Positions 3,001 through 5,464 are shown, counted from the first letter of the stretch. The stretch is 64,000 nt of DNA from Escherichia coli (GCF_003790525.1 NZ_CP033635.1); one strand, 5' to 3'. Program-made: the numbers.

Positions 3001-5464
3001 ACTGGCAGGAAGAAGCTGCGCGGCAATCCAACGATGGCGGCAGCAGTCAGGGCTTTGGCTACACGGCGCGGGCATTACTTGAACGACGTGTTACCTCCAA
3101 CTGGTTTGTCGGCACGGCAATTGATATCCAGCAGGCAAAAGATTACGCACCCAGCCATTTCCTGCTCTACGTACGTTATTCCGCCGCCGGATGGCAGGGT
3201 GACATGGATTTACCGCCGCAGCCGCTGATACCTTACGCCGACTGGTAAGTTTTCAGATAGCGCCTCTCTTAATGCCGCTGCGATCGGGTATACTCGGGCG
3301 GCAATCTGGGATTTCCGGGGGGAGACAATTTGCGCGTAAGTCGCTCGTTAACAATCAAGCAGATGGCAATGGTGGCAGCCGTTGTCCTGGTGTTCGTTTT
3401 TATTTTTTGCACCGTTTTGCTGTTCCATCTGGTCCAGCAGAATCGCTATAACACGGCTACGCAACTGGAAAGCATTGCTCGCTCTGTCCGCGAACCCTTA
3501 TCTTCTGCCATTTTGAAAGGCGATATTCCCGAAGCGGAAGCTATTCTTGCCAGCATTAAACCGGCAGGCGTGGTCAGCCGTGCCGATGTGGTGCTGCCTA
3601 ACCAGTTCCAGGCGCTGCGTAAAAGTTTTATTCCAGAGCGTCCGGTGCCGGTAATGGTTACTCGCCTGTTTGAGCTACCGGTGCAAATCTCGCTGGGCGT
3701 TTACTCGCTGGAACGTCCGGCAAACCCGCAGCCAATTGCCTATCTGGTGCTACAGGCGGATTCCTTCCGCATGTATAAGTTCGTGATGAGCACCCTCTCA
3801 ACGTTAGTGACCATTTACTTACTTTTGTCGTTAATATTGACGGTGGCGATTAGCTGGTGCATTAACCGCCTGATTTTGCATCCATTACGCAATATTGCTC
3901 GCGAACTTAACGCCATCCCAGCCCAGGAGCTTGTTGGTCACCAACTGGCATTACCGCGTCTGCATCAGGACGATGAAATCGGTATGTTGGTGCGCAGTTA
4001 CAACCTCAACCAGCAATTGCTGCAGCGCCATTATGAAGAACAGAACGAAAATGCGATGCGCTTCCCGGTGTCGGATTTGCCGAACAAAGCCTTGCTGATG
4101 GAGATGCTGGAGCAGGTGGTGGCGCGTAAACAAACCACCGCGCTGATGATCATCACCTGTGAAACCCTGCGTGATACTGCGGGTGTGCTGAAAGAGGCGC
4201 AACGAGAAATTCTGCTGCTGACGCTGGTGGAAAAACTCAAATCGGTACTGTCGCCACGTATGATCCTCGCGCAGATTAGCGGTTATGACTTTGCTGTCAT
4301 TGCCAACGGTGTACAGGAACCGTGGCACGCAATCACTTTGGGTCAGCAAGTGCTCACTATCATGAGCGAGCGCCTGCCGATTGAACGTATTCAACTCCGT
4401 CCGCACTGTAGCATTGGCGTGGCGATGTTCTACGGCGATCTCACCGCCGAACAGCTTTATAGCCGCGCTATTTCTGCGGCATTTACCGCTCGCCATAAAG
4501 GCAAGAATCAGATTCAGTTCTTTGATCCGCAGCAGATGGAAGCAGCCCAACAGCGGTTGACGGAAGAGAGCGATATCCTTAATGCACTGGAAAATCATCA
4601 GTTTGCGATTTGGTTACAGCCACAGGTCGAGATGACCAGCGGTAAACTGGTCAGTGCGGAAGTGTTACTGCGTATCCAGCAACCGGATGGCAGTTGGGAT
4701 CTGCCGGATGGCTTAATCGATCGCATTGAATGCTGTGGGCTGATGGTTACCGTTGGTCACTGGGTGCTGGAAGAGTCCTGTCGACTGCTTGCTGCCTGGC
4801 AAGAGCGCGGCATTATGCTGCCCTTGTCGGTAAACCTCTCAGCGCTGCAACTGATGCACCCGAATATGGTGGCGGATATGCTGGAACTGTTAACCCGCTA
4901 TCGCATTCAGCCGGGAACACTGATTCTGGAAGTGACAGAAAGCCGACGTATTGACGACCCTCATGCTGCGGTGGCAGTCCTCCGTCCGCTGCGCAATGCC
5001 GGCGTTCGGGTGGCGCTGGATGATTTCGGCATGGGCTATGCGGGGCTGCGTCAGCTGCAGCATATGAAATCGTTGCCAATCGACGTACTGAAAATCGACA
5101 AAATGTTTGTTGAAGGCTTGCCGGAAGATAGCAGCATGATTGCTGCAATTATCATGCTGGCGCAGAGCCTGAACTTACAAATGATTGCCGAAGGCGTGGA
5201 GACTGAAGCACAACGCGACTGGCTGGCAAAAGCGGGCGTTGGTATTGCCCAGGGCTTCCTTTTTGCTCGCCCACTCCCTATTGAAATCTTCGAAGAGAGT
5301 TACCTGGAAGAAAAGTAGCTACCCCAAACTGATTACAAAACTTTAAAAAGTGCTGGTTTGTGCGAGCCAGCTCAAACTTTTTAACCTTTTTGTTTCAATT
5401 ATGATCCAGGTACATTTCTGTGATGTTGTCTGGGTGTTATTTTAAGGCCGCAGGTACCCCATAA

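Follow-up and report, generated by a model that had tools for sequence, protein, structure and literature searches.

About 3% of the genes of Escherichia coli open with UUG, a codon that counts among the three canonical starts. Like infC, whose AUU start is linked to IF3 autoregulation, the c-di-GMP phosphodiesterase gene pdeK begins at a codon other than AUG, but UUG is canonical and is not discriminated against as AUU is, and nothing at pdeK points to an autoregulatory loop. PdeK has been described as a membrane phosphodiesterase that is encoded beside the cellulose operon, binds BcsB and DgcC and serves as a local c-di-GMP sink at the cellulose synthase (Richter et al. 2020, PMC7397504). 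According to the same paper, phosphodiesterase activity against c-di-GMP resides in vitro in the cytoplasmic part of the E. coli protein, and the GGDEF domain is degenerate. Neither Richter et al. 2020 nor Sarenko et al. 2017 says anything about the start codon of pdeK.

Direct data on the start are available from tetracycline-inhibited ribosome profiling (TetRP), which Nakahigashi et al. 2016 (PMC4909307) applied to the K-12 strain. Row 51 of their Table S2 lists yhjK (ECK3514), i.e. pdeK, with a new initiation site at -39 nt and the codon TTG; its difference from the 2014 re-annotation is 0, and yhjK is counted among 63 genes for which that re-annotation agrees with TetRP. In the three samples, reads amounted to 37.6, 53.1 and 21.1 at the TTG, as opposed to 0, 0 and 0 at the ATG annotated in 2006. 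Because the 2006 CDS is 39 nt shorter than the 2014 CDS (Table S3), the 2006 start corresponds to the ATG at position 3369 (codon 14) of the window, by which we mean the whole 64,000-nt stretch of E. coli DNA analysed here (GCF_003790525.1, NZ_CP033635.1). In this respect yhjK resembles other UUG re-annotations of the TetRP study, such as ybeZ, yliA and ftsH, where an upstream UUG replaces an AUG and the profiling signal is found at the UUG and not at the old AUG. Several of these were confirmed by lacZ fusions, whereas yhjK carries the confirmation code '6. nt'. No N-terminal peptide of PdeK is listed in the TRAINSPOTTER N-terminomics, in the Salmonella riboproteogenomics supplements or in the column 'N'-peptide found' of Table S2, and the names yhjK, pdeK, b3529, hmsP and STM3615 do not occur in the first two of these sources. 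The TTG start of pdeK is thus already known, having entered the reference annotation in 2014 and gained ribosome-profiling support in 2016.

The other close parallel is marR, in which a weak non-ATG start and the ribosome-binding site are conserved together across Enterobacteriaceae, a pattern that suggests selection on the level of translation (PMC12012556). The two genes differ in that swaps of the marR start codon have been shown to change expression and fitness, while at pdeK such an effect is a prediction. They also differ in that marR shows occasional switches between GTG, TTG and ATG, and no such switch is seen at pdeK in the 93 loci compared below.

In the window, pdeK lies between bcsC, which ends at 3248, and dctA (5501-6787), that is, beside the cellulose (bcs) operon and followed by dctA, the genomic position expected of HmsP/PdeK. 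A 501-nt query around the start matched 5424 of the 5426 complete E. coli genomes; the best matches were 100% identical, derivatives of K-12 were 99.2% identical to the window strain, and the features annotated beneath the match were bcsC and hmsP. The CDS is 1989 nt long and starts at the base equivalent to 3330 in AR_0013, in a W3110 derivative and in MG1655, whose record (pdeK b3529, NP_417986.4) has the TTG start, as does the RefSeq (PGAP) annotation. Pfam domains were found at residues 36-155 (GAPES3), 247-394 (GGDEF) and 415-648 (EAL), together with a sub-threshold match to HAMP at 178-231 (22.8 bits against a cut-off of 25), which gives the architecture of HmsP/PdeK: N-terminal transmembrane segment, periplasmic GAPES3, a further transmembrane segment, HAMP, GGDEF and EAL. 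With 781.1 bits against a cut-off of 733, the protein belongs to the HmsP equivalog NF008807 of NCBIfam, and its residues 2-659 align to positions 1-663 of the 670 positions of that profile; the family profile is shared with the Yersinia-type HmsP. Compared with pdeK of E. coli K-12 (U00096.3 / NC_000913.3), there is no difference of substance, as this is the same gene with a TTG start, 662 amino acids, a position between bcsC and dctA and the domain order GAPES3-HAMP-GGDEF-EAL. The name pdeK, which an earlier sequence-only reading had given to this frame, is therefore borne out by the 100% match to E. coli chromosomes, the hmsP/pdeK annotation and the NF008807 score.

The features of the start region are collected in the table below. 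The sequence at positions 3310-3340 reads gatttccGGGGGGAGAcaatTTGcgcgtaagt, with the immediate surroundings of the start as ...ccGGGGGGAGAcaatTTGcgcgtaagt..., and the GGAG core of the Shine-Dalgarno (SD) sequence is separated from the TTG by the 5-nt spacer ACAAT. When the frame is translated from the in-frame TAA, the TTG is the first ATG, GTG or TTG to appear. Pairing with the 3' end of 16S rRNA is predicted at -9.4 kcal/mol for this TTG, a strength reached by no more than 0.5% of window positions and 0.6% of ATG, GTG and TTG triplets; the corresponding energies upstream of ATG 3363, ATG 3369 and GTG 3372 (codon 15) are +0.1, -1.6 and -2.2 kcal/mol. The sequence-only reading had proposed a 662-aa frame beginning at the TTG behind a strong SD. 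Both the frame, which agrees with the sequence and the ORF list, and the strength of the SD, which is above chance in the window, hold. It had also placed the next in-frame ATG 12 codons downstream; the ATG is present, but it is the twelfth codon and lies 11 codons downstream.

Features of the pdeK start region (window coordinates)
Feature	Position	Strand	Basis or remark
In-frame TAA closing the frame 5' of the TTG	3270..3272	+	frame translation
Conserved TATACT hexamer, candidate -10 of a pdeK promoter	3289..3294	+	35 nt 5' of the TTG; intergenic alignment
Shine-Dalgarno sequence GGGGGGAGA	3317..3325	+	GGAG core at 3321-3324; sequence read, anti-SD pairing, orthologue motif
TTG (UUG) start codon of pdeK	3330..3332	+	ORF list, annotation, TetRP, orthologues
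pdeK (yhjK/hmsP) CDS, 662 codons plus stop	3330..5318	+	ORF list, Pfam, NCBIfam NF008807, annotation
Codons 2-11, conserved positively charged N-terminal tail before the first transmembrane helix	3333..3362	+	alignments, profile
ATG, codon 12	3363..3365	+	rejected as sole start (TetRP, substitution pattern)
ATG, codon 14	3369..3371	+	rejected as sole start (TetRP, substitution pattern)

For the comparative analysis we used 93 loci, namely the window, the best 80 loci from a one-genome-per-species set of Enterobacteriaceae and 12 more distant loci, which include Pectobacterium, Lonsdalea, Affinibrenneria, Sodalis, Baumannia, Ewingella and other Enterobacterales. The set covers Enterobacteriaceae, Pectobacteriaceae, Yersiniaceae (with Ewingella as a stand-in), Erwiniaceae-like taxa, Sodalis and Baumannia, and most of the distant loci are flanked by bcs genes and/or a gene for a dctA-like transporter of the SDF family. 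The downstream gene served to build a neighbour-joining tree with a total length of about 9.2 substitutions per site, and changes at each site were counted on it by the Fitch method. Positions -30 to -12 underwent 11-30 changes per site without any periodicity, the purine block of the SD at -11 to -6 underwent 2-8 changes per site, and the three positions of the start codon underwent none. Directly after the TTG, at codon 2, a three-base periodicity sets in: in codons 2-11, third positions changed 3-19 times per site and first and second positions 0-3 times, except for the first position of codon 7 with five changes, which are synonymous (TTA/CTN). Non-synonymous changes within these ten codons are confined to codons 2-5 across the 93 loci. 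The N-terminal peptide is kept in orthologues down to 51% identity, and residues S6-M12 are invariant in 17 sequences, while the mean column identity in the same 17-orthologue protein alignment is only 48%. A GGAG, GAGG or AGGA motif is found at -16 to -4 in 90 of the 93 loci, and the mean SD energy across orthologues is -7.0 kcal/mol at the TTG versus +0.8 kcal/mol at the internal ATG, which is without an SD in every orthologue scored. In four species (L046, L052, L071 and L076) an in-frame stop lies five codons 5' of the TTG with no start codon in between. As judged from these alignments, the substitution pattern is the signature of translation starting at the TTG, since only translation explains the nearly purely synonymous changes in codons 2-11 and the invariance of S6-Q11. 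The site combines the first usable start after a stop codon, proper SD spacing and coding-type evolution downstream, as is typical of an SD-led UUG gene.

Within the 93 loci, the SLTIKQM heptapeptide deviates solely in Trabulsiella guamensis (L029, 2501-2545), which has His in place of Gln11 (CAT for CAG) and keeps the TTG and the SD.

These data bear directly on the view that an internal ATG (3363 or 3369) is the sole start and that the TTG and the SD-like run before it arose by coincidence. In favour of that view, no start codon is more common than ATG, the ATG at 3369 was used in the 2006 GenBank record, several automatic gene calls begin with MVAAVV, many RefSeq entries from Pectobacterium begin at M12 (383 aa vs 394 aa), and M12 is invariant. 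However, TetRP gave no reads at the 2006 ATG in any of the three samples (PMC4909307), neither ATG is preceded by an SD, codon 14 is not conserved as Met (M, A, T or I among orthologues), and codons 2-11 evolve as a translated peptide. Moreover, removal of residues 1-11 lowers the NF008807 score by 18 bits and shifts the start of the alignment to profile position 11. We regard an internal ATG as the sole start as very improbable. The TTG, which the sequence-only reading had put forward as the start, is upheld by the RefSeq and MG1655 annotation, by the published TetRP data and by the sequence comparison.

Public gene calls disagree on the start of this family, and the truncated models omit the conserved tail. 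The ENA/Logan calls P0001, P0003 and P0007, which are E. coli-like, begin MVAAVV at ATG codon 14. Many RefSeq entries from Pectobacterium and Brenneria start at Met12 (P0121-P0144, MTAVS, 379-391 aa), and others start at the TTG (P0083-P0104, 393-395 aa).

A less extreme proposal is dual initiation, with the TTG giving the main full-length protein and ATG 3363, ATG 3369 or GTG 3390 giving a minor shortened proteoform. Table S2 of PMC4909307 lists a second yhjK initiation candidate at +21 nt from the old ATG, flagged as weaker, which corresponds to GTG 3390-3392 (codon 21); the same study reports many dual-start genes, and an invariant M12 would suit a second start as well. Yet that second candidate is given without read values, and none of the internal candidates is preceded by an SD (0.1 to -4.9 kcal/mol). 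In addition, codon 21 lies within the first transmembrane helix, so a product starting at GTG 3390 would lack a complete anchor. Dual initiation appears unlikely, though less so than an internal ATG acting alone.

The opposite possibility is a start further upstream, for example at CTG 3306, with a longer N-terminus. This CTG is in frame, lies 3' of TAA 3270 and is preceded by a moderately SD-like sequence (score -5.8), but there is neither codon periodicity nor conservation 5' of the TTG, many species have in-frame stops 5-8 codons upstream, and the TetRP signal maps to the TTG (PMC4909307). CTG 3306 was rejected as a start on the lack of upstream conservation and the stops in other species, and we consider the chance of such an extension negligible.

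In Sodalis (L085, 1489-1503) and Baumannia (L091, 1501-1515), the SD region has the form ATGGAGAAAAGT-TTG, so that the SD is overlapped by an in-frame ATG, four codons 5' of the TTG. Annotation of the gene begins at this upstream ATG in the Baumannia record (MEKSLQIRR...) and at the TTG in that of Sodalis.

Translation of pdeK is almost certainly a case of ordinary SD-led initiation at UUG 3330. In the mechanism that we propose, the 30S subunit would pair with GGGGGGAGA and thereby place the UUG, five bases downstream, in the P site, where it would be read by fMet-tRNA, so that the protein would begin with fMet followed by a short tail. This tail has three positive charges (R2, R5 and K10) and gives way to a hydrophobic stretch; the first transmembrane helix is predicted to follow directly, at residues ~12-32. 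The charges fit the positive-inside rule, and the sequence, the Pfam domain description and the published account of PdeK (PMC7397504) together point to an N-in anchor, a periplasmic GAPES3 domain and a cytoplasmic HAMP-GGDEF-EAL part. The tail would accordingly be expected to help to orient the membrane anchor. Selection may keep the weaker start codon together with the strong, conserved SD, and synthesis of PdeK would then be held at a set level.

The divergent orthologues vary in length and integrity. In Pectobacterium, Brenneria, Samsonia and Lonsdalea, they are only ~380-395 aa long (P0083-P0151) and consist of GAPES3, in some cases with HAMP and/or a weak match to GGDEF. Because these short proteins lack the EAL domain, they cannot be phosphodiesterases; they have kept the TTG as their start codon, and the N-terminal tail is likewise conserved in them. 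In both loci of this kind that were inspected, a gene for a dctA-like (SDF-family) transporter comes directly after the short orthologue (L084, 1501-2685, in Pectobacterium and L094, 1001-2173, in Lonsdalea). Elsewhere, two or three adjacent ORFs make up the orthologue, with the GAPES3 part ahead of the EAL part, as seen in Sodalis (L085, 1501-3451), Ewingella (L093, 1001-2648) and two further loci (L087, 145-2156; L088, 503-2150). Their sequences suggest frameshifts or pseudogenisation, or possibly assembly errors, and the splits explain why most of the proteins retrieved by searching were fragments, mainly shorter than about 455 aa.

Upstream of the start, an intergenic block between bcsC and pdeK, ctctcttaa...gatcgggTATACTc.ggcgg (window 3253-3303), is conserved in Escherichia, Citrobacter, Salmonella, Enterobacter and Kosakonia. 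It contains the TATACT hexamer, which occurs at most 150 nt 5' of the TTG in 60 of the 93 loci, most often at a distance of 35 or 56-63 nt. On the strength of this alignment, the hexamer probably represents the -10 element of a promoter specific to pdeK and weak in its -35. A promoter and terminator scan of 2900-3700 called nothing, and a simple sigma-70 scan passes over TATACT. The predicted stability of the RNA of 3249-3400 does not exceed that of shuffled sequence (z = 0.11), and an Rfam scan of 3100-3600 found no family at E <= 1. In E. coli the SD is covered by a small hairpin, but Citrobacter and Salmonella do not share it, and a structural switch at the start was therefore rejected.

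All 93 loci carry TTG at the position five codons ahead of SLTIKQM. Within the species, a 34-mer spanning the start with TTG is present in 5420-5421 of the 5426 complete E. coli genomes, and its ATG or GTG version in none of the 5426. On the tree used above, the first position of the start codon shows no change, whereas fourfold-degenerate sites nearby underwent 3-16 transversions (about 8 on average). If TTG, ATG and GTG were interchangeable, the Poisson probability of no change would be about 0.05 to 0.0003, a rough range with the expectation taken from the fourfold sites of this locus alone. The invariance of the TTG across the 93 loci is the only point that goes beyond the existing annotation, and it is a minor new observation. 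Together with the co-conserved SD, it suggests that selection favours a weak start codon behind a strong SD.

How far this can be taken depends on the weight given to the alternative that the TTG is indeed the start but is invariant through phylogenetic inertia or the general conservation of start codons, its choice having no particular regulatory meaning. The gene is weakly studied, any link between codon choice and phenotype is hypothetical, and the neutral expectation for the TTG is approximate and comes from one locus. In addition, PMC5499595 describes UUG as able to perform close to AUG in an optimised context, and 10.1101/063800 gives UUG '10%-100% of AUG'. Set against this are the lack of any change in 93 lineages on a tree of this length when neighbouring fourfold sites have accumulated many transversions, the absence of ATG and GTG versions from the E. 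coli genomes, the co-conservation of the SD and the precedent of marR, where a conserved GTG and ribosome-binding site have measured effects on fitness (PMC12012556). We regard inertia as a serious possibility that falls somewhat short of probable.

The reading that selection has jointly fixed the weak UUG and the strong SD across Enterobacterales, so as to keep PdeK low and possibly sensitive to the growth state, is one that we advance tentatively; under it, a change of TTG to ATG would over-produce PdeK and suppress pEtN-cellulose. Selection to hold PdeK at a set level is plausible because the protein is a local c-di-GMP sink docked on the cellulose synthase. Sensitivity to the growth state is conceivable because nutrient limitation and ppGpp act more strongly on non-AUG starts, of which UUG is the least affected (PMC5499595). 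The suggestion of the sequence-only reading that a non-ATG start may matter for the expression level of PdeK is plausible and fits the invariance of the TTG.

The TTG start of pdeK is genuine, and it is both ordinary and known already. Of the models of PdeK, the current one of 662 aa is correct, and the older one of 649 aa, which begins at ATG 3369, is truncated, as are some automatic calls. The correct start matters for cloning, tagging or deleting the N-terminus of PdeK/HmsP because the truncated models lack the conserved cytoplasmic tail that precedes the membrane anchor; the practical value of this is small. With a TTG that is invariant across the order, pdeK is a reasonable gene in which to ask, for a second time after marR, whether weak start codons are selected so as to set expression levels; this would be a modest and incremental advance.
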